64,000 nucleotides of DNA from positions 32,001 through 96,000 of the IMG/VR virus record IMGVR_UViG_3300029908_000007; one strand, 5' to 3'. Made by a program: the position numbers and the translations under genes. The notes under the pieces were generated by a model, which was given only the letters and a program-made list of their open reading frames with translations, ran no database searches and had not been told where the DNA came from. This document shows, in pieces, positions 2,017-39,567 of this stretch (positions are counted from its first letter, which is position 1; each line of letters opens with the position of its first letter). This DNA comes from a virus.

Positions 2017-3243
2017 ATGTCCTTGCTTAAGCATCTCCGCAAAGCTCTTACCGAAGAGTACTCGCTGAAGAAAGCTGAGGATCCCGTTGCCTACGCTAAG
2101 ACCGCTTCCACTGGTTTCATTCTTGCTCACCCTGTAAAGATCAACGGCGAAAGTCACAGAAAAGATAATGGTATCGATTACCATTCCACTGTAAAATTCT
2201 TCGATAAAGAAAAAGACAACCACGACGACGCCCACAAAACCGCTTCCCAATTAGACCTCACCCCACCCGATCCCAAAGAAACCCATATCGGCACCAATGT
2301 GATTAAAGATCGCATGGGTAACGACGTATACGCGATAACTTTGCATGGCAAGCACGCCGACAAGCTCAAAGAGAATCATAAAAAGTTCGATCACATGGGT
2401 CACAAAGAAAACTATGACTGGAACGCCCACATCAGTGTGCCTAAAGCCGTACACGATGAAATCAAAGCCAGCGGCCATAAGACCGCGCATGAAGCCGGAA
2501 TTGAATTCGGGCCAGCACAGCTGAAGCGTGGCAAAGAAGTTATTCATACTTATAAATTAAAAGAGCCGATGAAAAAGTCCGAAGGCGACGCTCCCTCAAC
2601 CGTCAAGCCTCCTGTCAAAATCAATCCCGAACACGGTAAGGCCATAGCAGATGCCTACGAGGGTATGAAACACGAGCCCAATAGCCCACACGTCAAAGCC
2701 GCCTACGATGCTTTGACCAACGAGACCGGCAAACAATTCAAAGACATCATGGGATCCGGACTTAAGATCTCGCAAATCAAACCCGGTCAAGCCAATCCCT
2801 ACAAAAGTTCCAAAGAAATGCATAACGACATCAAGAATAACAAACATCTGTGGTACTTCCCAACCGAACAGGGCTTTGGTAGTGGTGGGCAAGCTTCGGA
2901 CCACCCAATGTTGGGCCCCAGCGGTTTCAAACACGACGGCAAGTCTTTGGTACACAACGACATCTTTAGAATCGTTCACGACATCAACGGCCATCACGCC
3001 GGTGGAGAAACCGGATTTGGGCCAACCGGGGAGCACCAAGCCTATCTCACCCATAAGAAAATGTATAGCCCTCTAGCGGGAAAAGCATTGGCTACAGAAA
3101 CTATGGGACAAAATAATTGGGTGAATTTTGGTCCTCACGGAGAAAACAATAGAAAAAATCCAGCCCAGACAAAGTTTGCGGATCAAAAAGCGGGATTGTT
3201 ACCAGAACACATTACCAATGGAGACTGGCACAATGCATCATAA
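2017..3243 (+). CDS. Two-domain head-cargo protein: Acb1-like 2H phosphoesterase plus HDxxGH domain
   Basis: HST (2182-2190) and HIS (2428-2436) 2H motifs; NDIFRIVHDINGH...FGPTGE...ETMGQNNWVNFGP domain; domains bounded by LKKAE and MKKSE. Confidence 0.7.
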   Translation: MSLLKHLRKALTEEYSLKKAEDPVAYAKTASTGFILAHPVKINGESHRKDNGIDYHSTVKFFDKEKDNHDDAHKTASQLDLTPPDPKETHIGTNVIKDRMGNDVYAITLHGKHADKLKENHKKFDHMGHKENYDWNAHISVPKAVHDEIKASGHKTAHEAGIEFGPAQLKRGKEVIHTYKLKEPMKKSEGDAPSTVKPPVKINPEHGKAIADAYEGMKHEPNSPHVKAAYDALTNETGKQFKDIMGSGLKISQIKPGQANPYKSSKEMHNDIKNNKHLWYFPTEQGFGSGGQASDHPMLGPSGFKHDGKSLVHNDIFRIVHDINGHHAGGETGFGPTGEHQAYLTHKKMYSPLAGKALATETMGQNNWVNFGPHGENNRKNPAQTKFADQKAGLLPEHITNGDWHNAS

Positions 3244-4921: not shown

Positions 4922-5269
4922 ATGTGCGTAGAACTTGTTAAGAGTGAAACCCAAGTCAGTTTTAAACCCGAACTTCCTCTAGAAGAGCAAATCTGTGGAT
5001 GCCAGGAAGCTATTATTGACTGCGAACCCGATTGCCCGAAGGTACTGAAGTTCTTGGCCGAAGTCGAAAAGGCCTGCCAATATGGGAAATCGTTGGGAAT
5101 CAAACTTAGCCTAGTTGATACACACAACTTCGGATTGTTTAAAAAAGTTAAGGATTTAAACCAAGCCATCGCTACTTCTGATATAATACATCAGATAGTT
5201 TTGTTTCACGACAAAGCCGATCGTAGACTAGAAGAGATTGCTAACATGTGTAGGAAACCGAATGAATAA
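4922..5269 (+). CDS. Hypothetical protein
   Basis: Tightly packed ORF; N-terminal LVKSE. Confidence 0.55.
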   Translation: MCVELVKSETQVSFKPELPLEEQICGCQEAIIDCEPDCPKVLKFLAEVEKACQYGKSLGIKLSLVDTHNFGLFKKVKDLNQAIATSDIIHQIVLFHDKADRRLEEIANMCRKPNE

Positions 5270-6254
5270 AAAGCCCGAAGGCGAACAGATCGAAACTATT
5301 TCTTCTGAAGCACCTTATATTCAGGAATCTTTCGATTTAAATCGAATGGACGCTTTTGTAAAGAGTTTAGGTGTTCTCCTAACTCATTGGAAAGCCACGC
5401 CTTCACCAATTGGCTTAAACGATAAAGGCGACTATCGTAGAAATACCGGGCAAGTCGATGTTATGACTAGCAACGGCTATATATATAGTTTGGCAGGACT
5501 ATTCGTTGGTGTTATGACTGGAAACAGCAAAGACCAGCGGCGCCCTGTTGAAGGCGGATTGCTAGACTCAGCGCAGGCCAACCTAATACTACCCAGGTAT
5601 TACGAGCGCAAACAGACCAACGACGTGGCTTGCGGCGAAGACGGCTGTGTTGTTGATACCGATAAAAACGAAAGAATCTATCTCACCCCCGGAGATAGGT
5701 TATACTACGGTGATCCACAAGCCGACGACTTAGTGGTTGGCAAAGAATTGATGAATTTTGAGATCGACAAAGACACCGTTCCCATGTACCCCATTATTAA
5801 GATGGACGCACCTATCGTTGATTCTCGCGGAATTTCATATCAACAGAACATCGATTTCGTCATCACTAATTGCGGCGACATTCGGTGGATAGAAGGAAGG
5901 CCAAATCCGGGTATTGATCCAAGTACTGGAGAAGGCAGGACATTTTCGGCCCGCTACCTTTATAAAGCGTTTTACTACGTCACCTCTATCTTAAGAGAAG
6001 TTAGGATCACCAACACCAGCAAGTTTGGCGAGCCGAGCTGCGACAACCAGGGCCTGAGAAGCGCGGAACGCATGCCGATGTTTGTGCAACTAACCCGTGA
6101 ATACCTCTATCACAACATCAACAAGGGTTCGGAGACCAATAAAGCACCTCAAAAAGGTGCGGAACTCAGACAGACCGTTGAACCCCCTAGTACGGTTCCA
6201 ATACAGACTGGAATTGTTAGGGTAGAAACCACGGACCTCGATTTTGATGAATAA
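5262..6254 (+). CDS. Virion neck/head-closure-like protein
   Basis: ATG 5262 with AGGA RBS; morphogenesis context; beta-rich DFVI...GDIRWI...P...G..FS.RY segment. Confidence 0.5.
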   Translation: MNKKPEGEQIETISSEAPYIQESFDLNRMDAFVKSLGVLLTHWKATPSPIGLNDKGDYRRNTGQVDVMTSNGYIYSLAGLFVGVMTGNSKDQRRPVEGGLLDSAQANLILPRYYERKQTNDVACGEDGCVVDTDKNERIYLTPGDRLYYGDPQADDLVVGKELMNFEIDKDTVPMYPIIKMDAPIVDSRGISYQQNIDFVITNCGDIRWIEGRPNPGIDPSTGEGRTFSARYLYKAFYYVTSILREVRITNTSKFGEPSCDNQGLRSAERMPMFVQLTREYLYHNINKGSETNKAPQKGAELRQTVEPPSTVPIQTGIVRVETTDLDFDE

Positions 6255-6811: not shown

Positions 6812-7738
6812 ATGAAACCGAACGCCGAGTACTTTCTCAGAAAGACACTTGGAGAAGACCTTAAAGAGTCGTTAGGCGAAGTCCTATCTAAGTCCGAAGT
6901 CTATAAGCAAGGTACTCGTACTATTACCGATACCGACGATCTTTTTCAAGGTCTTCAAATCGTTCCACGAGCACTACTAAGTCTTTTGGTTAGAGAGTTG
7001 TCTCCCATGCAAATCGGAGAAAATAAAGAAATTCGCATTCCAGGAAAAGAAGACACCACGGTTCAGGTTACCAAGCATGAGCGTGATTCCTATAGTGGTC
7101 AAATAATTCAAAACAACGTTAAAATCAACGACTTTATGCACCGCTCATTACCGGGTTTAGGTTTGGTTTTGATGACAATGCTAGAACTATACGACTTCGA
7201 AGATCTCAAAGAAACTCCTTCCGCCGACCACTCCCATATCAACAAGCTCATCGACGAACGCATGCATCTTCACTCCCTCATCAACCAAGTCGTAGATGGC
7301 AAGCTCATGCACCGCGACGCCGTTGAACAGCTTCTCATGACCAAGCTAAATCAGATGGGCACCGAACATAAAGAGATTAAAGAAGAACACAAAGAAATCA
7401 TGAAGCCCGAAGAACCTAAGGCAACAGTGGTTATTAACATCGAAACCGCTAAAAAACGTCGTCCGTTATCGGAATTCGTGGAAAATCGTAAAAAGAAACT
7501 TGCCAAGAAAGAGCATTTTATAGAAATGAAAAAATCCGAAGAAATTTCATGCCCGGATTGCGGGAACGTTATTTTTTCTGAGGGTGCTTACAGCGGCTGT
7601 ATTTGTTTTGGTGATAGCGATAAAAAGCTTTATGTTAAAAAATCTGAAAACGGCTATATGGTGCGCCCTGGTCGTGGGTGGGATGAAGAGAATCTGGAAA
7701 TGCTTTTGGAAGCTTTGAGGGGTAATAAAAATGGGTAG
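6812..7738 (+). CDS. Hypothetical head-associated protein with C-terminal Zn finger
   Basis: LSKSE, MKKSE and VKKSE motifs; CPDCG...CIC. Confidence 0.6.
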   Translation: MKPNAEYFLRKTLGEDLKESLGEVLSKSEVYKQGTRTITDTDDLFQGLQIVPRALLSLLVRELSPMQIGENKEIRIPGKEDTTVQVTKHERDSYSGQIIQNNVKINDFMHRSLPGLGLVLMTMLELYDFEDLKETPSADHSHINKLIDERMHLHSLINQVVDGKLMHRDAVEQLLMTKLNQMGTEHKEIKEEHKEIMKPEEPKATVVINIETAKKRRPLSEFVENRKKKLAKKEHFIEMKKSEEISCPDCGNVIFSEGAYSGCICFGDSDKKLYVKKSENGYMVRPGRGWDEENLEMLLEALRGNKNG

Positions 7739-8480
7739 CGGCGGCAAGAACAGACTATCCGTTGAAGAAGTTGAGCGGAGGGTTCAACTTGCTCATGGTG
7801 GCATGGTTACAATGGTCGGATCTACCTACAAAGGTATGCTTAAAAAAGCATTGTTCGTCGACAAGGATCATGGGGAATGGTGGACAAAACCGGGTGACGT
7901 AACATTTAAGAAATCGGGCCATCCCTTAAGATCTTTAGAAAAATCAAGAAATACCTTTACGAGTAAATACGGTATTGGTATCATTAATGCCAGTCAAGTA
8001 GAAGAAATAAAAGAAAAAAAGAAAGCAACTACATTCAAAAACCATGGTGTTAAGCATCCTTCTCAGAGTAAGGCGATCAGAGAAAAGGCTCAAAACACGA
8101 CCCTAGAAAGGCATGGGGCTTTATTCCCGTATCAATGTTCAGACATTGCTCTCAAGGCCGCAAAAAAAGTAAACAATCCCAGTACAAAAATTCATTGGAA
8201 AACCGGAGAAGAACTATTTTGTCAAGGCGGATATGAAGCCAAAACTGTTGACTATCTTAATGCCAACCAAATTAACTTCGAATGGCAGCCCAAGACATTC
8301 AAAATGCCTGATGGTAAAACATATCGTCCTGACCTATACCTGTCTGACACAGGCATTTGGGTTGAAATAAAAGGCTGGATGAGAAAAGATGCTGAGTTAA
8401 AGTGGGACTGGCTCAAATCTGAATACCCTAACGCAGAACTTTGGAATCAAAAGAAACTAGAAGAAATGGGGATATTGTAA
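7731..8480 (+). CDS. Homing-endonuclease-like protein (KYG-type repeats plus PD-(D/E)xK nuclease)
   Basis: T...K(Y/H)G...SQ..I.EK repeats; TYRPDLYL...WVEIKGW. Confidence 0.7.
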   Translation: MGSGGKNRLSVEEVERRVQLAHGGMVTMVGSTYKGMLKKALFVDKDHGEWWTKPGDVTFKKSGHPLRSLEKSRNTFTSKYGIGIINASQVEEIKEKKKATTFKNHGVKHPSQSKAIREKAQNTTLERHGALFPYQCSDIALKAAKKVNNPSTKIHWKTGEELFCQGGYEAKTVDYLNANQINFEWQPKTFKMPDGKTYRPDLYLSDTGIWVEIKGWMRKDAELKWDWLKSEYPNAELWNQKKLEEMGIL

Positions 8481-10150
8481 TGGATACTAATACGTCCCAG
8501 CACTTAGTCTTCGCCGGAGATGGCGATAACATTGGTCAAAGACACGCTCGGGCCATTTTGTCCGATGACATCGCTCAAGTAAGAGAAGTTTCGGAACATA
8601 TCACCGAAGGAAATAATTTTGTAAGAGACTTTGTTGAATCCCATGGGGGCGAATGGATTAGTGGCGGCGGCGACGAATTCTCATTTATGGCTCCTCCTGA
8701 GTTTGTGGAGCTTCTCGATCAGCTCCGAAAAGATTATGAATATATAGTTCAAGCCACACTATCCGTTGGATATGGAGATACTATCTCTCAAGCCGGTAAA
8801 GCACTTTTGGTTGCTAAAAGTCGCGGAAAAGATCAAGTCGTACAGTACGAAGATTCGATGGAAGACGAGCTTCAGCGTATCGGTGAAGAAGAAAATTCTC
8901 CCGACGCAGAAGCAAAAAAAATAAAAGGTGTACTTACTAGCGATAACGGCACGCAAGCACAAGAACCTGGAAACGCGCCTCCAGAATCTGACAAGGTATT
9001 GCCAGAAGGATCTGACGCTGCTGTTAACGAACCCACTTCTTGTGAGCCACCAGTTGAAGATAATAATAACGGATATGATTCGGGTTATAAAAATAGCAAT
9101 CCCACCACTAGAAAAGACTCTTATAGAGCCGAGGATATGACTCCTCCTACGATTGCAAAACCTAACCTAAAACAGCAAACGCCGGTCAAAGAAGCGGTTT
9201 CTACCGATATTCAAGAGACCAACCGTCAAATGAATGAAGAACCCGCCAATCCAGATGAAGAGGCTCCTATGATTGAAAAACCAGCACCAAAAGCATACCA
9301 TGGACAAGCTGAGGGCGACGAAGAAGTCCCACAAAGCAATGTTCCACAAAGTGAGGCTCAGCCTAGAGATAACGATAAACCCGGTGATCTTAAATATGGA
9401 CCCGGCGAAGGCGAACAGATTCAGCCCGAAGCCGATGTTCCCGTTGAAAACGCTACCACAGATGAAGCCGAAGCCACTGAAGACCAGGACATGGAAACCA
9501 AACATTGTGAGAGCTGTACTTGCGCAGATCACAAAGACGCAGAAACTACTTTGGACGAACACGTTGACAATGCTCAGGATTTTGAAAATACCTTAGATGA
9601 CGGCCAACCTGAAGGCGCGGAAGAAACTTTAGACCAGCACATCGATAATGCCACCGATATGCAAGATAACATGGATCAAGATGGAATTAGTCGTCCCGAA
9701 GACTATGACGATAAACGCGAAGACATGGGACTTAGCGAAGAAGACTCCGGCGAACCCGACCTAGACGGCGTTCTTCGCGATGGACTTGATGAGCACGCAG
9801 AAAATATCCAGAAAGAAAAAGTTGTCAACATGGTTGGAGAAGCCCTGGAAGGATTCAAGAGTCAGAAAGCAATTCTCGATAAAGCGAAGGAACAAGCGCC
9901 AGAATTGTACGCAAGTTGCATTTCCATGTTACGCGCTATGATCGAACTCTGCTCATTGGCTGGAATCAACGATGGTGAAGCCGAACAAGAAGTTAATGAA
10001 ATCGAAGGTCAGAGTACTGCTCCAGAAGAAACTCCTGGAGAAGAGGGTACGCCAGCTGAAGCCCCTGCTGAAAGCGCATGTCCTAGTTGTGGAAAACCTC
10101 ACGATGAAGCGGCTCCCCAGGAGGGGCCGCCTGGAGCCCCACAGCAGTAA
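8480..10150 (+). CDS. mCpol (minimal CRISPR polymerase, Cas10-palm/GGDEF-like nucleotide cyclase) domain fused to a long acidic region and helical C-terminus
   Basis: VFAGDGDNIG...ILSDD...ISGGGDEF...TLSVGYGDTISQAGKALLVAKSRGKDQVVQY matches the mCpol pattern; ~400-aa D/E/P-rich tail. Confidence 0.8.
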   Translation: MDTNTSQHLVFAGDGDNIGQRHARAILSDDIAQVREVSEHITEGNNFVRDFVESHGGEWISGGGDEFSFMAPPEFVELLDQLRKDYEYIVQATLSVGYGDTISQAGKALLVAKSRGKDQVVQYEDSMEDELQRIGEEENSPDAEAKKIKGVLTSDNGTQAQEPGNAPPESDKVLPEGSDAAVNEPTSCEPPVEDNNNGYDSGYKNSNPTTRKDSYRAEDMTPPTIAKPNLKQQTPVKEAVSTDIQETNRQMNEEPANPDEEAPMIEKPAPKAYHGQAEGDEEVPQSNVPQSEAQPRDNDKPGDLKYGPGEGEQIQPEADVPVENATTDEAEATEDQDMETKHCESCTCADHKDAETTLDEHVDNAQDFENTLDDGQPEGAEETLDQHIDNATDMQDNMDQDGISRPEDYDDKREDMGLSEEDSGEPDLDGVLRDGLDEHAENIQKEKVVNMVGEALEGFKSQKAILDKAKEQAPELYASCISMLRAMIELCSLAGINDGEAEQEVNEIEGQSTAPEETPGEEGTPAEAPAESACPSCGKPHDEAAPQEGPPGAPQQ

Positions 10151-10193
10151 GCCCGAAGCTCAGGCCGAGGGCGCCGTAGGATCGGTTAAGAAA

Positions 10194-10364
10194 TTGCCGA
10201 CTAAACATTCTACACCACATATTCCCAAAGAGACCACTCCGGTTGGAGGCGTCAATGCTAAAGGCCAGAAACGCTATATCGATCCCTCTACGGGAAAAGA
10301 TGCTTACATCGACATGAAAACCCCTAGAGTTAAGGGACCAAGAGGTCTTCCCGTAAAAGGCTAG
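10194..10364 (+). CDS. Small basic protein, or +1-frame extension of the mCpol protein
   Basis: Fills the gap between 10150 and 10366; only a TTG start after the upstream stop; frame open from 9972. Confidence 0.45.
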   Translation: MPTKHSTPHIPKETTPVGGVNAKGQKRYIDPSTGKDAYIDMKTPRVKGPRGLPVKG

Positions 10365-10365
10365 C

Positions 10366-11214
10366 ATGCTAAAATTCAATATTGACCCCAAAGATATATT
10401 GGCTGCATGTAAGGATTCCCAAGAAGAGGTTAAAAAAGCCTTAACTAAAGGTGTAAAAGATCTCGCAGTTGCGGCTCAAGGACATATTGTCGAACTTGCT
10501 AAAGGCGAACTGAGTCCGGCTTTGTTTAAGATCTTTAAGGGTGACCAAAAAGAACCCACACTTCGCATAGATACTATTGACGCCAATACCCATGTTATAA
10601 CCTTATCGGGCTCTGCTTACTGGATTGAAGAAGGCATTGAGCCGGGCAGTGATATGAAAACGGACAAGTGGCTTTTTAAATCTAAAAAGACCAGAACTTC
10701 TAAAGAAGGTTACCGCTATTTATTTGTACCATTTGAACATTCAGCACCTCCTAGCACCCAGACCGGCTATGAAAAAGGCCTAACCGACCGCGTTAAGTTC
10801 GAACTCAAGGCTAAAAACAAACAACGTAAACAGAATGGCCTATCTCAGATTCCTTGGATGGGGATAGAAAGAGATGAGCATGGTAAACCCAAAGAGGGTT
10901 TGATCCATGAATTTGATTTCAAAGGCACCAAAGCAAAAGATAGTTGGACATCTAATCCATTAGAACGTTTGAGGGTCTATCAAGCCGTTGAAAGAGATAA
11001 AGAAGGAAAAGCTAAGCTCACTAAAGGCGGCAAAGAAAAAGTAACCCGATCGTGGATGACGTTCCGTACTGCTTCCGAAAATCCAAAAAGTAAAGATAAG
11101 TTTATACACCCCGGTTATACCGGCAACAAGTTTATGGATAAAACTAAAGAATGGGCTGAAACCGAATTCTACGGCAAAATCCTACCTGACATTTTTGCGA
11201 AGTGGAAGGACTAA
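10366..11214 (+). CDS. Virion morphogenesis/neck protein
   Basis: AYWIEEG...DMK...YLFVPF...FRTAS...FIHPG pattern; upstream of the tail genes. Confidence 0.5.
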   Translation: MLKFNIDPKDILAACKDSQEEVKKALTKGVKDLAVAAQGHIVELAKGELSPALFKIFKGDQKEPTLRIDTIDANTHVITLSGSAYWIEEGIEPGSDMKTDKWLFKSKKTRTSKEGYRYLFVPFEHSAPPSTQTGYEKGLTDRVKFELKAKNKQRKQNGLSQIPWMGIERDEHGKPKEGLIHEFDFKGTKAKDSWTSNPLERLRVYQAVERDKEGKAKLTKGGKEKVTRSWMTFRTASENPKSKDKFIHPGYTGNKFMDKTKEWAETEFYGKILPDIFAKWKD

Positions 11215-11215
11215 T

Positions 11216-12229
11216 ATGGGTGGAATATTTCAAACCGACGCACTGCTTAAGACCATACTTGAAGAATCTCTGCAGGATGTTAAGAATAATCTGTGGCTTG
11301 TCGAATACATATTAGAAGATTTCACTCAAAACAAGTTCTTGCGCACAAAATTTGGACAAAAGCAAATCGCTGCTGCCAAAGAATTCTTTTTAAATAACAA
11401 TGTCAATGTTCAGTTACAGTTCTCCAAAGATAAAGAGAAATTCCCAGCTATCTTCTTAACGATGGGCAGTAGTAATGAATTTCAAGAAAATCGCACCATG
11501 GGCGACGTTGGAGAAAGAAATATCATTTTACAGCCGTCACAGGTTGGTTTAAAAATACCTTATGTGGTACCACCCTTTATTCCCACAAGTTTTGATGTCG
11601 CCACAGGAACTATCGGGGTCCCTGAAGGAATTGATCTCATGCCAGTTTCTCCAGGCATGGTCGTACTGAATCCTGAAAATGGTAACGGCTACCCAGTAAT
11701 CAGTATTAACGGTCAAAGTATTATGGTTCAAGCCGGGATCGAATTAGACGCGTCCCAACTCGGGGTTGTTCCTCAATATCGTTATTTCCAATCCCGTCTG
11801 GGACGTTCATTCTTCGAAGAAACCTGGGCCATGACTATTGCAACGAATGATCCTCAGACGTTGCTTTGGCTTCATAGTTTGGTAGTTTACACACTTCTCA
11901 GATATCGTGAGTTTTTTGAACACAATGGCTTTTTGGAAACCAAACTGAATAGTACCGACATTTTTACTCCCGAGTTTAGCAATGCCGGTGGCGAAGAAAT
12001 CTACTGTAGACAAGTTACCATGAGCGGTCGCGTAGTCCAGAGCTGGATTCGTGGTCTTCATAAGAAAATCGAATCCGTTCTTATTAGAGATATTAATCCT
12101 GCCGCTGTTACTTTAGCCGATCCTTCAGGCTATGTCGGCGGCATACGCATCGTTAGTAACCTAACAACTCCTCCTCTTCAACAGAATGATACGACCTATT
12201 TTACCGAAAATCCGGAAGACGAAGAGTAA
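11216..12229 (+). CDS. Tail completion/terminator-like structural protein
   Basis: Context before the sheath gene; FPAIFL and W.MTI.T patterns. Confidence 0.45.
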   Translation: MGGIFQTDALLKTILEESLQDVKNNLWLVEYILEDFTQNKFLRTKFGQKQIAAAKEFFLNNNVNVQLQFSKDKEKFPAIFLTMGSSNEFQENRTMGDVGERNIILQPSQVGLKIPYVVPPFIPTSFDVATGTIGVPEGIDLMPVSPGMVVLNPENGNGYPVISINGQSIMVQAGIELDASQLGVVPQYRYFQSRLGRSFFEETWAMTIATNDPQTLLWLHSLVVYTLLRYREFFEHNGFLETKLNSTDIFTPEFSNAGGEEIYCRQVTMSGRVVQSWIRGLHKKIESVLIRDINPAAVTLADPSGYVGGIRIVSNLTTPPLQQNDTTYFTENPEDEE

Positions 12230-13226: not shown

Positions 13227-13823
13227 ATGAAAACCTGTTCGAAGTGCGAAATCACAAAAGACCTTGAATGTTTTGGGAAAGCTCCCCAAAACAAAGACGG
13301 TCTTAATGGGCAATGCAAAGAGTGTAGAGCCGCTTATTTACTAGATTATAATGAAAAAAACAAAGAAAAGGTTATGGCGGGTCAAAGAAGATATTATAAA
13401 GAAAACAGGGTAGAGATTATAGAAGAAAAAAAGATCTATCGTGCTTTGAATTTAGAAACTATCAAACCCAAAACCAATGCTAGACTCAGGGCTAGAAGAA
13501 AAAATGATCCTCAATTTAAATTGGCAGCTAATTTAAGAGGACGTCTTAATATGGCTATTAAAAGAGGGTACAAGGCAGGTTCGGCGGTAGATGATTTGGG
13601 ATGTTCTGTAGAATCTTTTAAATCTTATATAGAAGGTCTACTCCAGCCGGGCATGACATGGGCTAACTATAGCCCAAGAGGATGGCATTTGGATCATAAA
13701 GTCCCCTTGGCTAGCTTTGATTTAACAGATAGAGAACAGTTTTTGAAGGCTTGTCATTACACCAATTTACAGCCTTTGTGGGCCGTAGACAATATTAAGA
13801 AAGGTGACAAAATTTATGGCTAA
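13227..13823 (+). CDS. HNH/endonuclease VII-like homing endonuclease
   Basis: N-terminal CSKC...CKEC; WHLDHKVPL...CHYTNLQPLWAVDNIKKG. Confidence 0.8.
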   Translation: MKTCSKCEITKDLECFGKAPQNKDGLNGQCKECRAAYLLDYNEKNKEKVMAGQRRYYKENRVEIIEEKKIYRALNLETIKPKTNARLRARRKNDPQFKLAANLRGRLNMAIKRGYKAGSAVDDLGCSVESFKSYIEGLLQPGMTWANYSPRGWHLDHKVPLASFDLTDREQFLKACHYTNLQPLWAVDNIKKGDKIYG

Positions 13824-16258: not shown

Positions 16259-16789
16259 ATGGCTGGAGCACAACTACCTAATTTAAATCCCACCAATGGT
16301 GGAACAGGTCAAAGCTACACCGTAACTGGTGGAAGAGCTTTGCTTTATTTACCTAATCAATCTGGGCAACTGGTGTTGGCTGGGACCTTTGATACCGTTA
16401 GCAGAGGCCGAGGACTTGGGACTGAAGCAATTCATACCCTCGGTCAATATTCGGCCCGCGAAATTGCAATTACTTCTTACAACGAAGTTACTGTAAATTG
16501 TAGCGGATTCCGTGTAGTCGGAGCTGGAACTACGGTTCTTGGTCATTTCCCCACACTTGCTGAGATCTTAAACTATTCATCTGTCACAATCAAAGTTGTT
16601 GACAGGCAGACTGGCGATACGATTTTAGTCGTAACCGGCGCTGTTCCTACTACAGACAATGAGAACTATTCGAGCCGAGCCACCACCAAGACATCGATTT
16701 CTTATACGGGAATCGCGGCTTTCGATGAATCGACCACTGATTCTTCGGGTAATCCGACAGATGGTGAAGGCACGCCAAGTTGGCCATAA
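16259..16789 (+). CDS. Tail tube protein
   Basis: 176 aa directly after the sheath gene; strong RBS AAGGAG; LGQYSAREI...V.VNCSGFRV...IKVVDRQTG. Confidence 0.75.
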   Translation: MAGAQLPNLNPTNGGTGQSYTVTGGRALLYLPNQSGQLVLAGTFDTVSRGRGLGTEAIHTLGQYSAREIAITSYNEVTVNCSGFRVVGAGTTVLGHFPTLAEILNYSSVTIKVVDRQTGDTILVVTGAVPTTDNENYSSRATTKTSISYTGIAAFDESTTDSSGNPTDGEGTPSWP

Positions 16790-16875: not shown

Positions 16876-18210
16876 ATGAATAGAACTTGGACTTTAGAAA
16901 AATTACAGAACGAAGCTATAAAATACACAAAAAGATCTGCTTTCCAAAAGGGAAGTAAGACGGCCTACAATACGGCTCAGCGCAAAAACCTACTGGACAT
17001 TATCTGTAAGCACATGGAAGCCTTTAACATCAATGGCGACAGAAATCCTAATTTTAAATGGTCCCTGGATATTTTAAAACAAGAAGCTCTGAAGTACAAT
17101 TCAAAAAGCGAATTTAAAGATAAAAATCCAAAAGCTTACCACGCAGCTTGGTACAGCGATGTGCTAGATGAAATCTGCTCCCATATGAAAAACCTTCTCC
17201 ATTATTGGACGGACGAAGAATTGGCCAAAGAAGCTTTAAAACATAAAAGCAGAACCAAATTTGAAGAAAAAAGCGGAAGTGCCTATCTAACCGCTTGTAG
17301 ACGAGGTCTTATAGATGAAATCTGCGTACATGCTCCAAAAAATGAGAAGAAAAGCTATGTACAAAAAGAAATATTTGATTTCATTAACTCTTTTTATCCT
17401 GATACCGTATACGATACTAGAAAAGTAATATCTCCGTTGGAACTAGATATTTACATACCATCATTGAAGCTAGCCATTGAATATTGTGGCCTATATTGGC
17501 ACTCAGAAGAATATAAAGAAAATAGCTACCATTATGATAAAATGAAATTTTGCAATGAAAAAGGTATAAGACTGATTACAATATTTGAAGATGAATGGCT
17601 AAAAAGGCAGGATCAAGTAAAGAACCTTCTTAAGTCGGTTATCAATAAAAATGAGTTCAAAATAATGGGAAGGAAAACTAAAATTAAAGAAGTGCCCAAA
17701 AAAGAAGCTAAAGAATTCTTAGAACAAAATCATATTCAAGGGTCTTCTGTATTTGAAATATCGTTTGGTTTGTATTATTTTAACGAACTACAAGCAGTAA
17801 TTACCGGCAACAAACATCATAGACAAGGCCATTCCGACACGCTAGTTTTAAATAGATTGGCTTTTAAGACCGATGTGTCTATTGCTGGAGGCCCTTCTAA
17901 ACTTTTCAATCGTTTAGTGAGCTATGCGAAAGAAAGGGGATACAAGAGGTTAATTTCCTGGTCCGACAATAGGTGGTCTGAAGGAAATGTTTACAAAAAG
18001 TTAGAATTTGAATTAACTGAAAATTTACCTGCCGACTATTCTTATTTTAGCAATCAGTCTAGAATATCCAAACAATCTTGTCAGAAAAAGATGTTAATTA
18101 AAAAAGGTGCTAAAGGAGATATGTCTATGACCGAAAAAGAATTGGCTTTAAGTCTAGGTCTATATAGAATTTATGACTGCGGTAAGAAACAGTGGTCCAT
18201 TAATTTATAG
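16876..18210 (+). CDS. Hef-like homing endonuclease: three helical repeats, PD-(D/E)xK domain, GNAT/Mom-like C-terminal domain
   Basis: W(T/S)...L..EA.K...F...AY..A....LD.IC.H repeats; ELDIYIP..KLAIEYCGLYWHS; FLEQNHIQG...LNRLAFK...ISWSDNRWS. Confidence 0.75.
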   Translation: MNRTWTLEKLQNEAIKYTKRSAFQKGSKTAYNTAQRKNLLDIICKHMEAFNINGDRNPNFKWSLDILKQEALKYNSKSEFKDKNPKAYHAAWYSDVLDEICSHMKNLLHYWTDEELAKEALKHKSRTKFEEKSGSAYLTACRRGLIDEICVHAPKNEKKSYVQKEIFDFINSFYPDTVYDTRKVISPLELDIYIPSLKLAIEYCGLYWHSEEYKENSYHYDKMKFCNEKGIRLITIFEDEWLKRQDQVKNLLKSVINKNEFKIMGRKTKIKEVPKKEAKEFLEQNHIQGSSVFEISFGLYYFNELQAVITGNKHHRQGHSDTLVLNRLAFKTDVSIAGGPSKLFNRLVSYAKERGYKRLISWSDNRWSEGNVYKKLEFELTENLPADYSYFSNQSRISKQSCQKKMLIKKGAKGDMSMTEKELALSLGLYRIYDCGKKQWSINL

Positions 18211-18276: not shown

Positions 18277-20130
18277 ATGGCGACAGAAACTCCTAAAACC
18301 GGCCCAACATATATCCATGGTGTTGGATCTAGCACTGCAATTGATACTGCCGGAGAAATTGTGGATTTGGCCGGTATCGACTGTTCTGCACTTCTGCAAG
18401 GCCCATTTTCCTGGGAACATCAAAATACTCAACCAAATCAACTAGTTGGAAAAATATTAGAATACAAAAAGATCTTTTCTGAAGCTGATTGCGAAAACGA
18501 ACATCACAAACGCTTTTGGGAAAAATGCCAAAATCCGTTCCTTTATGTAATGGGACGTCTTTTTGATGATAAAAAGGACTCTTCAAAAGAAGTCGCTGCC
18601 TTATTCATAGACGATGCGGAACATCCTGATGAGCCCCCAATGGTTGGATTCAGCATCGAGGGCAGCAAAGTCGACAAAAAGGGTATTATAGTGACAAAAT
18701 CTATTGCTCGCAAAGTAACCGTGACAAATGCTCCCGCCAATAAACAGTGCGTCGCCGAACTCATTCCCGGCCCTGAAGTCAAACAAAAATCCGAAGACTC
18801 CATCTTTAAATCCGAATTCACCCATACCATCGATCTTGTAAAAACCGAACTTAAAAAAGACGGCAACATGCCCGCTCCTGCGGCCTCACCAAAACCTGAT
18901 CTGGGTTGGACCGCTAATCCTACCCCTTTTGGTAATCCTATGAGCAATCTAATGTCAGGACTTGGAATGGGTAAAAAAGAAATGAAAAAATCCCAGGTTC
19001 CTGGTAGCAAATATCCGCCGAAGTCTGATGTTAAGCCTGGAACTCCTCCCCAAGAAAAAGTTGGAGGCATTCCTAAGTTTGGACCCATTGCTAAACCAAC
19101 ACCCAAACCTTTAGAAAAAGCCCGTGTTGATGAAGGCAAGACTCCGGAACGAAAAGCTTGGGATAGATCTGCTAGAAATGATAGAACTGGCACCACAACT
19201 ACAACTTGGATTAAACGTCCTAGTGCGGTTGGAGAATTGCTGGGTGCAAAACCTAAAAAAGAAACTCAAACCAATACTCGTTCCCATGCAGCCGCCGGTA
19301 ACATCGATATGAGAATCGGAACTGCCGCAACCCCAGGACATGCGCCCAGAACATCGTCTACACATGGCGGTGGGACCGTTACGTCGAGTAGAAAAGTAAT
19401 AGGTACACCTGCTAAATCAATGCAAAAAGCAATGACCGCTGGATCCGGTATGGCTGGACCCGGTACCCTTAGTGGTGGTGCCGCGCTTAGTAAGGAAAGT
19501 CTTGACAAGAAGATGAAAAAGGCCGAACTTTTGAAACGCGCCAAAGAAGCCTACCAGACCTGGGAAAAGAGAGAAGCTTTTGAGAATTTTATGGCAAAAA
19601 GTATGCCAGAACTTACGAAGCATGAAATTATTGCTATTGGTCAAACGATTGCTTTGTCTAAGTCCTTAAAAGCTGAAGCCAAATTAGCCAAGATGCTAAC
19701 TTCTAAAGAAGCTATTGATGAGAACGAAATCGGGACCAAGTTCGACAAGAACATGGCAGGCGACAATATCAGTTCTTATGTTTCGCCTGCAACTGGCAAT
19801 CTAGGTGCTTCTGAAGATTTTAAGAAAGCTGAAAAGAAAGCCCCTGGTGAATATGGTAATGTTGAGCCACATACTAGCCATAAAGGTATGATGGGTTTAG
19901 GTTTCGACTTTCACATGAAACAGAGTGGGATCCATAAGGAACACGCCGAAAAAGCCCATACTAGCGGAAATAAAGATTTGGGCCAGAAGCACCGTGAAAT
20001 GGCCGAAATGCATCGCATGTATACTCACGCTCTTCCTCATGAAAAAGATGAGCCGGGTCGTGATTATTCTTCCGCTGAAAAAAGCGCTAAAAAATTAAGG
20101 ATTGCCTTAACAAAATCTGAATCTGAATAG
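18277..20130 (+). CDS. Prohead protease with a long scaffold/cargo-like C-terminal extension
   Basis: IHGVGSSTAIDTAGEIV...SWEH...VGFSIEG...VTVTNAPAN (HK97/U35-type His-Ser protease); many K-S/A motifs in the tail. Confidence 0.8.
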   Translation: MATETPKTGPTYIHGVGSSTAIDTAGEIVDLAGIDCSALLQGPFSWEHQNTQPNQLVGKILEYKKIFSEADCENEHHKRFWEKCQNPFLYVMGRLFDDKKDSSKEVAALFIDDAEHPDEPPMVGFSIEGSKVDKKGIIVTKSIARKVTVTNAPANKQCVAELIPGPEVKQKSEDSIFKSEFTHTIDLVKTELKKDGNMPAPAASPKPDLGWTANPTPFGNPMSNLMSGLGMGKKEMKKSQVPGSKYPPKSDVKPGTPPQEKVGGIPKFGPIAKPTPKPLEKARVDEGKTPERKAWDRSARNDRTGTTTTTWIKRPSAVGELLGAKPKKETQTNTRSHAAAGNIDMRIGTAATPGHAPRTSSTHGGGTVTSSRKVIGTPAKSMQKAMTAGSGMAGPGTLSGGAALSKESLDKKMKKAELLKRAKEAYQTWEKREAFENFMAKSMPELTKHEIIAIGQTIALSKSLKAEAKLAKMLTSKEAIDENEIGTKFDKNMAGDNISSYVSPATGNLGASEDFKKAEKKAPGEYGNVEPHTSHKGMMGLGFDFHMKQSGIHKEHAEKAHTSGNKDLGQKHREMAEMHRMYTHALPHEKDEPGRDYSSAEKSAKKLRIALTKSESE

Positions 20131-20190: not shown

Positions 20191-20553
20191 ATGGGCACAA
20201 AAGTGTTTTGTTACAGGAATTTACACCAAAAAGGCGTCGTTTGGTCAGTAAAAAATGTTAAAACCGGATTAGTAATAGATAGATCTAAAACCGTATACAT
20301 TTCAATGGCCGATCTCATAGTTTCTCAAGCCGGACGCGATAGAGTGATAAGAGAGAAGAGAAAGCATGTCCACGCCGGTATCAGGGGTAAAAGGATCAAA
20401 GCAGCCCCTAAGAATGTGGTTTGGATTAAAGCTACTTACAATCCATACTTATATAACTCTTTTGTTACTTCCGAAGATGAAATTCCTATTCATTCTGCCA
20501 GATATGCTAAATTAAATAGGTTTGGTTTGTGGATTGGAAACCTTAAGCGTTGA
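20191..20553 (+). CDS. Conserved hypothetical phage protein
   Basis: VFCYRNLH...WSV...GRDRVIREKRKHVHA...YNPY pattern; own promoter and RBS. Confidence 0.65.
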   Translation: MGTKVFCYRNLHQKGVVWSVKNVKTGLVIDRSKTVYISMADLIVSQAGRDRVIREKRKHVHAGIRGKRIKAAPKNVVWIKATYNPYLYNSFVTSEDEIPIHSARYAKLNRFGLWIGNLKR

Positions 20554-24588: not shown

Positions 24589-26448
24589 TTAGGCGCCTTC
24601 TTCCTCATCAAGAAGCATATCTTCTATTTCCATGGAAAGCAAATCTTTTATTAGTTCGGGTGGTCTAGGAGCATATAAGGCCTTGATAGCGTTAGGATTT
24701 GCTTGCATTAAAAGTTGAAAATTTTGAAGCCAGAAGGCATCACGTTTGAATTTAAGTAAAGGATCAAAAATTGCGCCAGGGTCTCCAAAGAACCTAGTTC
24801 TGACTTCGCCGACGTTCGAATAAAAATCGAGTACCTGTCTATAACGCTCATTAAACGGAACCGCTCCGCCCATTGCCTTACCAACCGGATCTAGATCAAC
24901 TTCTCTTTGTAGCGTATCGTAGTCGTAGAAAAGTGCGGAGTCCTGTTGAAGACGTGCGGCTTCCTGCTCCTTTGATTCGGAATCGAGGCCGGAAAGTTTT
25001 ATTTCTACGATTTGTGCGAGTTCGGCGTCGATGATTGGAAGCAGTCGTTGATTTAAAAATACCTGCCAGCCTAAGATCAAAGGGCGCAAGCCGGAATCAC
25101 GAGCGGCGGTCATTTTAAATTCGTTATTACTTTCGCTGAGAGTTTGAGAATTTGTTCCCTTAGACAGATGTCCATACCCAGGAATTTCATCAGGCGACAC
25201 ACCGAATGCCGCCAAAATATTTCTGGCTATTTGATCGTAAGTATAAGAGAATTCGGAATCGCCAAGTTTGTCCGCCGTACCAATCCACGCGACGTCATCT
25301 TCTTTCGCGATCCCAAAGATCGGGGTTCTAAAAGCGTTGGAGACAGAATTGATAGATGCGTTGAATTGCATTTTAATTGCATCAAGCATCTGTTGATCAA
25401 CCTCGTCGCTCTTGATAACTAACATCCCTTTGGCTGATTTACCGTTACTGAAATATGTTTTCCAGTAGGCTTCGATAGAAATATGCGTGGTGATGCAATT
25501 CATACAGGTATCTAGTGGTGAAACCGGATAGCCGTTGTGCTCGATGTCGGTGCTTGGGAAGAGATTGTAGACAAGCATTTCATTCGACGTAAACGCCTGT
25601 CGTGGCTGCATTTCAATAACTTGTAGCCAGGTATACTCGTCTTCCTTGAGTTTTTGCATGTCGATGTTAAACGACGCGCCTTCCATTTGCTCCAATGCTT
25701 TTAGCGCAAGTTCTCTTAGATTATTTCCAACGCTTTCGCCTTTACGAACGGCACGAAAAATTGTAGCAATATCTACGGGACGAAATCTATGAAAAGGATA
25801 ATTACCGTCTTTGTCGGGATCCTTAGATCTGTCGTAGATAATTTCAGTGCCATGCGATCCAAAAGCAAGTCCGTTTTGAGTTTGAATGCTCAAGTAATCC
25901 GATAACACCATTTGGTCTTGGTGTTCCAAACCCTCGGTGTGTCCGCAATTAAGCAAAATCTTTTCCAGACGTTTGATTCTTTCCACGACTTTTGTGTACT
26001 GCTCAGGAGTCAATAGTTTTAAAAACTCCGGTCTGATATCAACTTCAACACCAACGTCGAAACGGTCCTTTTTGAGGTGACCGTAGAGTTTCATGATGTT
26101 GCCGCGAGTTCTTAGAATGGCGGCGACAAGATGGTCGGTGACACGGATGGCCTTGATGAGTTCGGGAGGAAGCAGACGGGTACGGGCTTTGAACAAGCCT
26201 AAAAAATTTGATTGCGGTGCTGGGAGTTCGGAAAATGCAAGAGAGGGAGCTTTTTTCTTAGCAGCGGTTCCAGACAGAACTCTAATAGCTTCTGATAATG
26301 GTTTGGTTTCGCCCTTGCGTAGATCAGTTCCTGGAACTGCCAAAGCTTCTAACGCTTTGGCCAAAGACGTTAGGCTATGCTCTTGGCTTCCTTCTTCAGG
26401 ACTATCACCAAAGGTAATGCTGACGGTTTTTTTATCTTTGACGTCCAT
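24589..26448 (-). CDS. Portal protein
   Basis: 619 aa downstream of terminase; FRPVD.ATI, GYPVSPL, YFSNG...KGML, AFGVSPDEI motifs. Confidence 0.85.
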   Translation of the reverse strand: MDVKDKKTVSITFGDSPEEGSQEHSLTSLAKALEALAVPGTDLRKGETKPLSEAIRVLSGTAAKKKAPSLAFSELPAPQSNFLGLFKARTRLLPPELIKAIRVTDHLVAAILRTRGNIMKLYGHLKKDRFDVGVEVDIRPEFLKLLTPEQYTKVVERIKRLEKILLNCGHTEGLEHQDQMVLSDYLSIQTQNGLAFGSHGTEIIYDRSKDPDKDGNYPFHRFRPVDIATIFRAVRKGESVGNNLRELALKALEQMEGASFNIDMQKLKEDEYTWLQVIEMQPRQAFTSNEMLVYNLFPSTDIEHNGYPVSPLDTCMNCITTHISIEAYWKTYFSNGKSAKGMLVIKSDEVDQQMLDAIKMQFNASINSVSNAFRTPIFGIAKEDDVAWIGTADKLGDSEFSYTYDQIARNILAAFGVSPDEIPGYGHLSKGTNSQTLSESNNEFKMTAARDSGLRPLILGWQVFLNQRLLPIIDAELAQIVEIKLSGLDSESKEQEAARLQQDSALFYDYDTLQREVDLDPVGKAMGGAVPFNERYRQVLDFYSNVGEVRTRFFGDPGAIFDPLLKFKRDAFWLQNFQLLMQANPNAIKALYAPRPPELIKDLLSMEIEDMLLDEEEGA

Positions 26449-39354: not shown

Positions 39355-39567
39355 ATGTTTGATACACATAAACTGAATGAAGCCGGATTTGCAGCGGTCA
39401 AAACGCTAAAAACGAATATGGCCGCAGCTGTCCAAGAAGCACTTTCCCTTATGCCAGAAGGTCGAGAAAGGTCTATTTTTGTAACCAAGATCGAAGAAGC
39501 AATGTTTTTTGGAACCAAAGCCGTTGCTTCCGATCGCAACTTTCACACAGAAGTAGTTAAATATTAA
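39355..39567 (+). CDS. Acb2/Tad1-like helical-hairpin cyclic-nucleotide sponge
   Basis: 70 aa; F.TH.L...P.GRERSI..TKIEEAMF...KAVA matches the hairpin consensus P.(S/G)RE.SLA.TKLEEA.MW...AIA. Confidence 0.7.
   Translation: MFDTHKLNEAGFAAVKTLKTNMAAAVQEALSLMPEGRERSIFVTKIEEAMFFGTKAVASDRNFHTEVVKY

Follow-up and report, generated by a model that had tools for sequence, protein, structure and literature searches.

The carrier gene and its layout

The DNA analysed here (the window) is a stretch of 64,000 nucleotides, bases 32001–96000 of the 162,308-bp IMG/VR virus record IMGVR_UViG_3300029908_000007, which is 98% complete and has 0 tRNA genes. An open reading frame (ORF) on its plus strand, at 8480–10150, encodes a protein, referred to below as the carrier, that begins with an mCpol (minimal CRISPR polymerase) domain. 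Until now, mCpol has been studied only as one half of Panoptes, a bacterial guard system that punishes phages which remove immune nucleotides; the Panoptes enzyme is named OptS. The domain described here is a real phage mCpol, probably active as judged from its sequence. Its carrier is conserved, has two predicted lengths and is probably contained in the capsid. The enzyme family is a known one, and its setting is probably unreported.

The ATG of the carrier at 8480 overlaps the TAA of the endonuclease gene upstream, and its stop codon lies at 10148–10150. The gene contains the following features.

8480..10150, plus strand: carrier gene, short form, 556 aa (P0001; ORF and translation), laid out as mCpol domain, acidic linker, C-module and Pro/Glu-rich tail
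8504..8854, plus strand: mCpol palm domain, aa 9–125 (PF18182, NF033576, AlphaFold2 (AF2) model and fold match)
8519..8527, plus strand: first acidic motif D14-G-D16; D14 corresponds to D6 of the OptS enzyme KpOptS and is invariant in 67 aligned homologues
8666..8680, plus strand: GGDEF hairpin, aa 63–67; D65 corresponds to KpOptS D57, and G63, G64 and D65 are invariant
8858..9676, plus strand: variable acidic linker, aa 127–399, isoelectric point (pI) 4.05, with 70 Asp and Glu residues, 26 Pro and one CxxC; predicted local distance difference test (pLDDT) score mostly <60
9677..9970, plus strand: conserved C-module, aa 400–497; DMGLSEE, nearly invariant, followed by three helices that include KEQAPELY
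10120..10126, plus strand: Shine–Dalgarno (SD)-like GGAGGGG, a possible frameshift stimulator (suggestive, from sequence)
10136..10150, plus strand: candidate recoding site GCC_CCA_CAG_CAG_TAA, with the NCC_CCA shared by +1-type junctions; putative mechanism
10140..10364, plus strand: basic C-terminal extension of ~74 codons, pI ~10, in the +1 frame; ends 1 nt before the next gene and would give a long form of ~628 aa

The N-terminal mCpol domain

Residues 11–123 of the carrier match the Pfam mCpol family PF18182 with 59.2 bits (cut-off 26.4) over profile positions 2–114 of 114, and the protein matches NCBIfam NF033576 with 41.5 bits (cut-off 40). The motifs GDGD (aa 13–16), GGGDEF (62–67), SVGYG (95–99) and ALLVAKSRGK (108–117) are all present, in agreement with a first-pass annotation of the window, made from the letters alone, which had assigned the full mCpol pattern with both acidic motifs to this ORF. 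The AF2 model, built with 67 homologues, has pLDDT values of 95–98 across aa 9–125. Its best fold matches in the Protein Data Bank (PDB) are the OptS structures 9pd0, 9mnr and 9nwn, with TM-scores of 0.88–0.90 (on target) and root-mean-square deviations of 1.6–1.9 Å for 116–119 residues, at a sequence identity of 24–25% to the matched OptS/mCpol structures; GGDEF domains and Cas10 rank behind them. A phmmer search of the PDB likewise returned 9nwn and 9mnr as top matches (E 1e-5). The same annotation had proposed a search of this domain by hidden Markov model (HMM) and structure, and the outcome agrees with its expectation: mCpol/OptS is the best match by both, the Cas10 palm and GGDEF families are weaker, and no unrelated fold ranks on top.

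In a gapless alignment, D14, D65 and S38 of the carrier fall on D6, D57 and S30 of KpOptS. D6 and D57 of KpOptS bind metal ions, and mutating either abolishes synthesis; S30 affects the choice of nucleotide that is made (PMC12657218). On the carrier, profiles of the Cas10 palm and of GGDEF type score much lower than the mCpol profiles, and the sole GGDEF-type Pfam match, PF24898, reaches 15.5–16.8 bits and is under its cut-off of 30, which does not support a GGDEF diguanylate cyclase. In PHROGs the protein has no family, and PADLOC gave weak mCpol and Cas10 matches only. The N-terminus of the carrier is therefore a true mCpol domain, with very little room for doubt, and its active-site residues indicate with good confidence that it is catalytically competent.

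Conservation of the active site

An alignment of 67 homologues is conserved at both ends and variable in the middle. D14, D16, G63-G64-D65, K113 and G116-K117 of the mCpol domain are invariant in it and position 66 is Glu or Gln, compared with an average column identity of ~55% for the domain outside the active-site residues. Among 193 representative domains, the first motif is DxD with GGDE in 141 and with GGDQ in 24, and it is NxD with the second Asp kept in 27. The combination DxD plus GGD[EQ] is thus found in 165 of 193 representatives (~85%), and the Asp equivalent to KpOptS D57 in 192 of 193. Such conservation argues for selection on the active site in most lineages, that of the window carrier among them. 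The first-pass annotation had regarded poor conservation of the catalytic Asp residues among phage homologues as telling against its proposal; they are conserved in ~85%, but not in the NxD group (~14%) or in Myxococcus phage Mx1, where the site is degenerate. The NxD subclade (representatives P0203–P0246) combines NGD with SGDE.

The same survey bears on an alternative in which the carrier is mainly a structural or assembly protein, its mCpol fold serving a head-completion or scaffold-like protein as a head for oligomerization or nucleotide binding, with catalysis dispensable. Such a role would suit a core, syntenic gene of the structural block whose recoding (see below) is typical of virion proteins. 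Mx1 keeps the whole protein despite the changes D14 to S and GGD to LGA and the loss of the lysines, 27 of the 193 representatives have NxD, and some relatives are without the mCpol domain. KpOptS is also a stable tetramer (PMC12657218), so that the fold can serve as an oligomerization module. In the remaining ~85%, however, the metal-binding Asp pair, K113/G116-K117 and the GGD hairpin vary little or not at all, compared with the ~55% background given above, and the mCpol domain is dispensable for the anchor, being absent in some relatives, which makes it cargo and not scaffold. A mainly structural function appears unlikely.

Linker and C-module

The linker differs widely in length and sequence among homologues. 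Two CxxC pairs are present in the window carrier: CESC, within HCESCTCADH, at 9506–9535 in the linker, and CPSCGKPH at 10079–10102, ahead of the shift site, where close relatives keep CP[SN]CG[HK]. These pairs may be zinc knuckles.

The C-module has the invariant residues L456, F459, K460, K463, P474 and L484, and its helices (aa 429–493) are modelled by AF2 with pLDDT 80–89. A profile search with the module recovered 265 representative clusters (at 50% identity), and mCpol and the C-module occur together in 192 of the 247 family proteins analysed. No relative of the module was found in Pfam, PHROG or the Atlas, nor a paralogue in the phage genome. The first-pass annotation had described everything after the mCpol domain as an acidic, probably disordered region of ~400 aa. 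This description holds for aa 127–399, but aa 400–497 form a three-helix module, and coding very probably runs on to 10364 in another frame. The carrier was considered as the main scaffold, and this identity was rejected, since upstream of the window the phage has another, acidic scaffold (284 aa) along with a probable capsid gene of 461 aa, and since the C-module is without a paralogue.

C-terminal extension and probable frameshifting

The 215 bases that separate the carrier stop from the next gene (10366) contain an open frame, which runs to 10364. The extension and its junction with the main ORF were surveyed in 77 IMG/VR loci, and the extension peptide is conserved in 71 of them. It is in frame with the carrier in ~18 loci, and also in Mx1. 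Where it lies in the −1 frame, 36 distinct junctions were found, 35 of which contain an in-phase XXXYYYZ heptamer 1–6 codons before the stop; C_CCA_AAG occurs 20 times and C_CCA_AAA 7 times, and most others are A-runs. With the exception of one locus, no ATG, GTG or TTG is present in the extension frame upstream of the homology in this group. The extension lies in the +1 frame at eight distinct junctions, that of the window included; all eight share NCC_CCA_CA, and most continue as NCC_CCA_CAG_CAG_TAA. An SD-like stretch of 4–5 nt is located 5–17 nt upstream of the shift site at 8 of 8 junctions of the +1 type and 25 of 35 of the −1 type, which is suggestive of a frameshift stimulator.

Programmed frameshifting in the carrier family is well supported at the sequence level, because a conserved peptide, the heptamers, the missing start codons and the shared NCC_CCA all point to it. 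The exact event in the window is inferred. Its junction is without an XXXYYYZ heptamer, and the GCC_CCA at 10136–10141 would need a +1/−2 shift. In a −2 slip, tRNA-Pro would move from CCA (10139–10141) onto the C4 run with perfect re-pairing and enter the extension frame, giving the protein of ~628 aa; alternatively, a +1 shift at GCC_CCA would lead into the same frame. The extension frame of the window also holds ATG and GTG codons inside the main ORF, so that separate initiation is conceivable. CCC_C at 10115–10118, tried as a +1 slip site, was rejected since the remaining +1-type loci do not conserve it. Two protein lengths produced by recoding are known from a number of proteins of virion structure and assembly.

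In an AF2 model of the C-module plus extension from an in-frame relative, three helices and one β-hairpin (pLDDT 80–85, the core of the extension) are predicted, and the rest is of low confidence. The basic character of the extension (pI ~10) means that it could bind DNA, and a palm polymerase fold is common to mCpol, Cas10, GGDEF and Thg1 (PMC12657218). Together with the head-completion-type genes adjoining the carrier, these features would fit a nucleic-acid-directed enzyme that adds nucleotides to, or primes on, a DNA or RNA end inside the capsid or at its opening, for example to protect the genome end that is injected first, or in a Thg1-like reaction. Such an activity is highly improbable: the domain has nothing beyond a minimal cyclase fold, and its closest relatives in sequence and structure all make free cyclic oligonucleotides.

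Genome setting and distribution

The carrier lies in a block of structural genes, and its principal neighbours are the following.

6812..7738, plus strand: head-block protein of 308 aa that has LSKSE, MKKSE and VKKSE, three motifs of protease type; its gene directly abuts the carrier in relatives
7731..8480, plus strand: endonuclease gene (homing/HNH-type; PHROG endonuclease and homing-endonuclease matches), which separates the 308-aa gene from the carrier
10366..11214, plus strand: conserved downstream neighbour of 282 aa (phrog_16819), starting right after the extension; 72 loci
11195–12229: terminator-like gene PF23932
14098–16236: tail sheath
16259–16789: tube
24589–26448, minus strand: portal

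As assessed gene by gene in three relatives, and in 72 loci for the downstream neighbour, gene order is fixed: head-block genes, the carrier, a protein of 250–290 aa, the terminator-like PF23932, sheath and tube. The portal and large terminase lie farther on, on the opposite strand. Placement of the carrier among neck and head genes, as given in the first-pass annotation, is thus borne out by its terminator-like, sheath, tube and portal neighbours. The position of the 7731–8480 gene is empty in one relative locus (L003) and is occupied in two others (L004 and L005) by a gene of 166–174 aa. The carrier was also considered as a tail-assembly chaperone and rejected, since its place is ahead of the terminator-like and sheath genes and not behind the tube gene. 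Searches of the PDB with the sequences of the neighbours at 5238–6254 and 10366–11214 gave no match. A complex prediction of the C-terminal part of the carrier with the downstream neighbour scored 0.00, which counts neither way on binding.

The same architecture is found in more than 120 clusters (90% identity), all metagenomic, many on contigs of 150–177 kb. The nearest isolate is Mx1, the only relative in culture; its tail sheath is 38.7% identical, and its carrier protein is WNM70340.1. Searches of the phage collection at the DNA and protein levels gave no match to the C-module, the complete protein or its DNA region; the N-domain of the carrier has a weak syntenic match in Mx1, which the family HMM later confirmed. 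The carrier is a strictly syntenic, near-universal core gene of a large Mx1-like clade with genomes of 150–177 kb.

No σ70-like promoter of the carrier's own was found above chance. The sequence AATCTTTA, a candidate late-promoter motif, is not more frequent than chance predicts (10 copies versus 5.2 ± 2.5), though six copies lie directly upstream of structural genes. The carrier is probably expressed late, by co-transcription with late genes.

A scan of bacterial genome contigs with the single protein gave no match, and a scan with the full alignment retrieved four short contigs of metagenome-assembled genomes (MAGs) that bear carrier genes. Three of these (L083, L085 and L086) belong to one MAG, 'Deltaproteobacteria bacterium bog_1112', and the fourth (L084) to a Flavobacteriaceae MAG. 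They are probably mis-binned phage DNA and provide at most a faint hint of the host.

The structural module contains four endonuclease genes of homing/HNH and endonuclease VII type, at 153–1160, 7731–8480, 13227–13823 and 16876–18210. A 120-aa gene at 20191–20553 strongly matches Phage_L5_gp82 (PF25735, 112 bits) and phrog_586, neither of which has an assigned function. Both ends of the record (the first and last 60 bases) are copies of a ~22-nt, CGATTCGAGCCAGGTTA.GGCGT-like repeat, and the ends are probably assembly breaks inside a repeat array.

Protease-type motifs and probable packaging

The prohead proteases gp21 of T4 and gp175 of phiKZ cut at short sites ending in Glu. A motif of this kind, [LMIV]xK[AGS]E, was counted over all predicted proteins of the phage genome. 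It occurs 20 times in the 10,757 aa of the head block and 7 times in the 40,647 aa elsewhere (1.86 versus 0.17 per 1000 aa, an ~11-fold difference); shuffled head-block proteins gave 3.0 ± 1.8 matches, with a maximum of 9. The motif occurs in the portal, in the acidic protein that resembles a scaffold, in a protein that weakly matches a head protease and in the products of the genes just upstream of the carrier. It is also present in the ORF at 18277–20130 and in several small head-block proteins. From this distribution, [LMIV]xK[AGS]E is likely to be the code of the prohead protease.

The motif is present in 40 of the 192 carriers of the family. Nine relatives have an N-terminal extension, and in six of these the motif lies 10–20 aa before the start of mCpol. 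The extra N-terminal domain is GNAT-like in two of the nine (clear in P0104, weak in P0097) and without an assigned family in the others. Extended carriers are exemplified by P0104, P0097, P0070, P0085, P0075, P0008 and P0182; most of them, not including P0097, have a KSE-type motif before mCpol. Cutting at that junction would leave a protein that starts like the window carrier. Some relatives without mCpol have instead an N-terminus rich in Cys, His and the motif, followed by the same type of linker, the C-module and the extension. In P0172, P0171, P0190, P0193, P0168 and P0187 this N-terminus starts with MKKLCK.H, has repeated LC..HKS and KSE, and precedes acidic CPYC repeats. The N-terminus therefore varies while the C-module and extension stay constant, which identifies the C-terminal anchor as the constant part and the N-terminus as exchangeable cargo. 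By homology, we infer that this cargo is handled by the head protease, as it is for packaged internal proteins.

On balance, these features favour a carrier that is associated with the virion. The first-pass annotation had suggested that the enzyme could be delivered from the particle. This is plausible for a late, syntenic gene of the structural block with a two-length C-terminus and, in relatives, the motif at the mCpol junction; the window carrier itself is without the motif. The alternative is that the carrier stays unpackaged and acts as a late enzyme in the producing cell, where a flood of nucleotide would block or prematurely fire effectors, or retune physiology of the c-di-AMP type, before lysis, with the C-terminus localizing or regulating it. 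Co-transcription with late genes from no promoter of its own and the window carrier's want of a protease motif or propeptide agree with this alternative, as does the constitutive activity of OptS-type enzymes (PMC12657230). A purely cytoplasmic late enzyme would, however, need no conserved anchor and extension; the predicted fixed-ratio recoding and strict placement between head block and neck suit a component of the particle better, and relatives of the carrier have a protease-type motif where their domains join. We regard an unpackaged enzyme as improbable.

The 2H phosphoesterase, the Acb2-like gene and Panoptes

Two other genes of the window bear on nucleotide signalling.

2077–2601, aa 21–195 of the ORF at 2017–3243: 2H-type phosphoesterase domain with two Hx[ST] motifs, invariant in 31 relatives, flanked by LKKAE and MKKSE
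39355–39567: Acb2/Tad1-like gene, 70 aa (PF24729, 29.8 bits, cut-off 27)

The Acb2/Tad1-like sponge at 39355 had been named in the first-pass annotation, and the PF24729 match above its cut-off supports it. The annotation had also called the protein at 2017 an Acb1-like 2H phosphoesterase. A domain of the 2H superfamily is indeed present, but its identity as Acb1 is not supported: the best PDB matches of the 2H profile, which are weak (E 0.016–0.3), are the LigT-like 2H enzymes 1vdx, 2fyh and 2d4g, Acb1 is not among them, and both His motifs align in the two displayed alignments to LigT-like structures. In at least 35 relatives the 2H domain lies upstream of the carrier, at a distance of 3.5–6.4 kb. 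Where the sequence of a locus extends far enough upstream, the domain is found beside 38 of 45 carriers with intact DxD and 0 of 6 other carriers, in loci that are not phylogenetically independent; it was not found at the Mx1 locus. This tracking of intact carriers by the 2H domain is only a lead. The Acb2/Tad1 hairpin gene is present in two of 15 near-complete relatives, all 15 of which have the carrier gene, and is absent from Mx1. The presence of a sponge therefore does not explain a universal mCpol. Co-occurrence of mCpol with Acb1 and Acb2, which the annotation had proposed to examine, thus fails for Acb2 and, for the 2H domain, holds as the lead just described.

These results bear directly on the function that had been put forward for the gene, that of an anti-Panoptes decoy. 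The phage mCpol would make the nucleotide of a host OptS or type II mCpol and so silence OptE or a CARF-transmembrane (CARF-TM) effector, while the sponge and the phosphodiesterase clear alarm signals. Several observations are in keeping with such a decoy. OptS is closest to the domain in both sequence and fold, and S38 corresponds to S30 of KpOptS, the position of nucleotide choice (PMC12657218); the genome has both an Acb2/Tad1-hairpin gene and a 2H phosphoesterase domain that accompanies intact carriers in the proportions, and with the caveat on independence, given above; and sponges are known triggers of Panoptes (PMC12657218, PMC13712596). Others are difficult to accommodate. mCpol systems are relatively rare in bacteria (PMC12657218), a poor fit to a core gene across hundreds of phages, and the Acb2-like gene is found in only 2 of the 15 relatives. 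A sponge or phosphodiesterase would also clear the phage-made copy of the signal, expression is probably late, Mx1 has a dead site and ~14% of representatives have Asn at the D6-equivalent position. The anti-Panoptes role is thus unsupported, and a decoy, which we consider quite unlikely, is no better supported than other roles in signalling.

Pfam and PHROG searches matched no CARF or two-transmembrane (2TM) protein among the neighbours of the carrier, in line with the first-pass annotation, which had seen no such effector adjacent to it. In the whole phage genome, no match to Cap15_CD_rec (PF18153) or SAVED (PF18145) was found, although control genomes gave none either, and no CARF profile was run.

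Proposed function

Our tentative reading, to which we give slightly less than even weight, is a virion-associated carrier, most probably inside the capsid, that consists of a competent mCpol cyclase, an acidic tether and a helical anchor, with or without a basic hairpin added by frameshifting. The carrier would be loaded into the prohead through its C-terminal anchor and would enter the next host together with the DNA, or be active in the cytoplasm ahead of packaging. Its mCpol domains would be brought together as OptS-like oligomers and would convert host NTPs to a cyclic di- or tri-nucleotide that disturbs nucleotide-based immune signalling of the host. A role in nucleotide signalling is likely but unproven; that the carrier manipulates host nucleotide immunity is possible but less likely than not. 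The fuller scheme, in which phages of this clade inject a capsid-packed mCpol that forges nucleotides of the immune type, pre-empting Panoptes-like guards or competing at the effectors of CBASS (antiphage signalling systems based on cyclic oligonucleotides) or type III CRISPR, while a co-packaged 2H enzyme erases host signals, seems unlikely.

Several findings weigh against a packaged, active cyclase. The window carrier has neither [LMIV]xK[AGS]E nor an N-terminal propeptide, the only variant being MGLSE at 416–420, so that the case for its cleavage and packaging comes from relatives and setting. Neither the anchor nor the extension resembles a known family or fold, and a search of the phage genome with the Cap15_CD_rec and SAVED profiles, on which the controls were silent too, gave no receptor for a nucleotide signal. 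The 27 representatives (~14%) with Asn at the position of KpOptS D6 carry a change, D6N, that inactivates KpOptS (PMC12657218), and the active site of Mx1 is fully degenerate: S stands in place of D14 and LGA in place of GGD, and neither lysine is left. The mCpol domain thus has a non-catalytic role in some lineages, and since the protein persists there without catalysis, the carrier has its own role.

Papers and reviews on Panoptes that were searched, up to autumn 2026, place mCpol in prokaryotic defence operons only and do not mention a phage-encoded copy. An apparently active, probably particle-borne mCpol conserved over hundreds of phage lineages suggests that viruses may write second messengers of the bacterial-immune type, beyond erasing or sponging them, and bears on how phages could answer guards that respond to loss of signal. 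If capsid-packed signal forging were true, it would be the first viral counter-defence of a 'signal-forging' kind, with a write-and-erase pair delivered by the virion. The carrier itself represents an unannotated family whose cargo can be exchanged and whose frameshift is conserved, and may help to find more virion-delivered effectors.

Comparison with known systems

With GGDEF cyclases and Cas10, the carrier domain shares the palm fold and a hairpin of the GGDEF type, at weaker fold and profile matches; it is ~40 aa shorter than a GGDEF domain and lacks all other Cas10 domains. The closest system is Panoptes OptS/mCpol (PF18182; KpOptS 9mnr and 9pd0; mCpol 9nwn; types I and II; PMC12657218, PMC12657230, PMC13577387), with which it shares the palm fold at a TM-score of 0.9, the Asp pair (D14/D65 versus D6/D57), a Ser at the nucleobase-contact position and a domain size of ~120 aa. 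In contrast to OptS, in which the full GGDEF motif is mostly missing (PMC12657218), the carrier has it. The carrier is also phage-encoded, in a late structural block and not in a bacterial defence operon, and its mCpol domain is fused to a carrier part of ~430 aa, with no OptE or CARF-TM partner among the neighbours (no CARF profile was run genome-wide).

Polyvalent proteins of phages and conjugative elements have reportedly been described by Iyer et al. in 2017, and toxins fused to MuF combine a constant, virion-associated carrier with interchangeable enzymatic modules at one end. The modules of the present family swap in a similar way: mCpol, a GNAT-like domain plus mCpol, another domain plus mCpol, or no mCpol. 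The carrier family is a different and unannotated one, and its cargo is a signal-nucleotide synthase, which we do not know as cargo of polyvalent or MuF proteins.

Frameshifting in virion genes is familiar from G/GT of lambda and other tail-assembly chaperones and from 10A/10B of T7, and dnaX provides the type of a −1 shift stimulated by an SD sequence. Like these, the carrier family has XXXYYYZ a few codons before the 0-frame stop, a startless extension, an upstream SD-like stretch and some in-frame relatives. Unlike the lambda and T7 proteins, the carrier is neither a tail chaperone nor a coat protein, and the shift that the window would use, +1/−2 at NCC_CCA, is of a less common type with a putative mechanism.

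The internal proteins of large myoviruses are enzymes or anti-defence proteins that are made late, loaded into the prohead, trimmed by the protease and injected with the DNA. IPI–III and Alt of T4 have a capsid-targeting sequence that is cut by gp21 at L/I-x-E, and the inner-body proteins of phiKZ are cut by gp175. The window carrier differs from them in having neither an N-terminal targeting peptide nor such a motif, and any targeting would use the C-terminal helical anchor; it resembles them in that an analogous motif is enriched 11-fold in the head block of its phage and, in relatives, bounds the mCpol domain.

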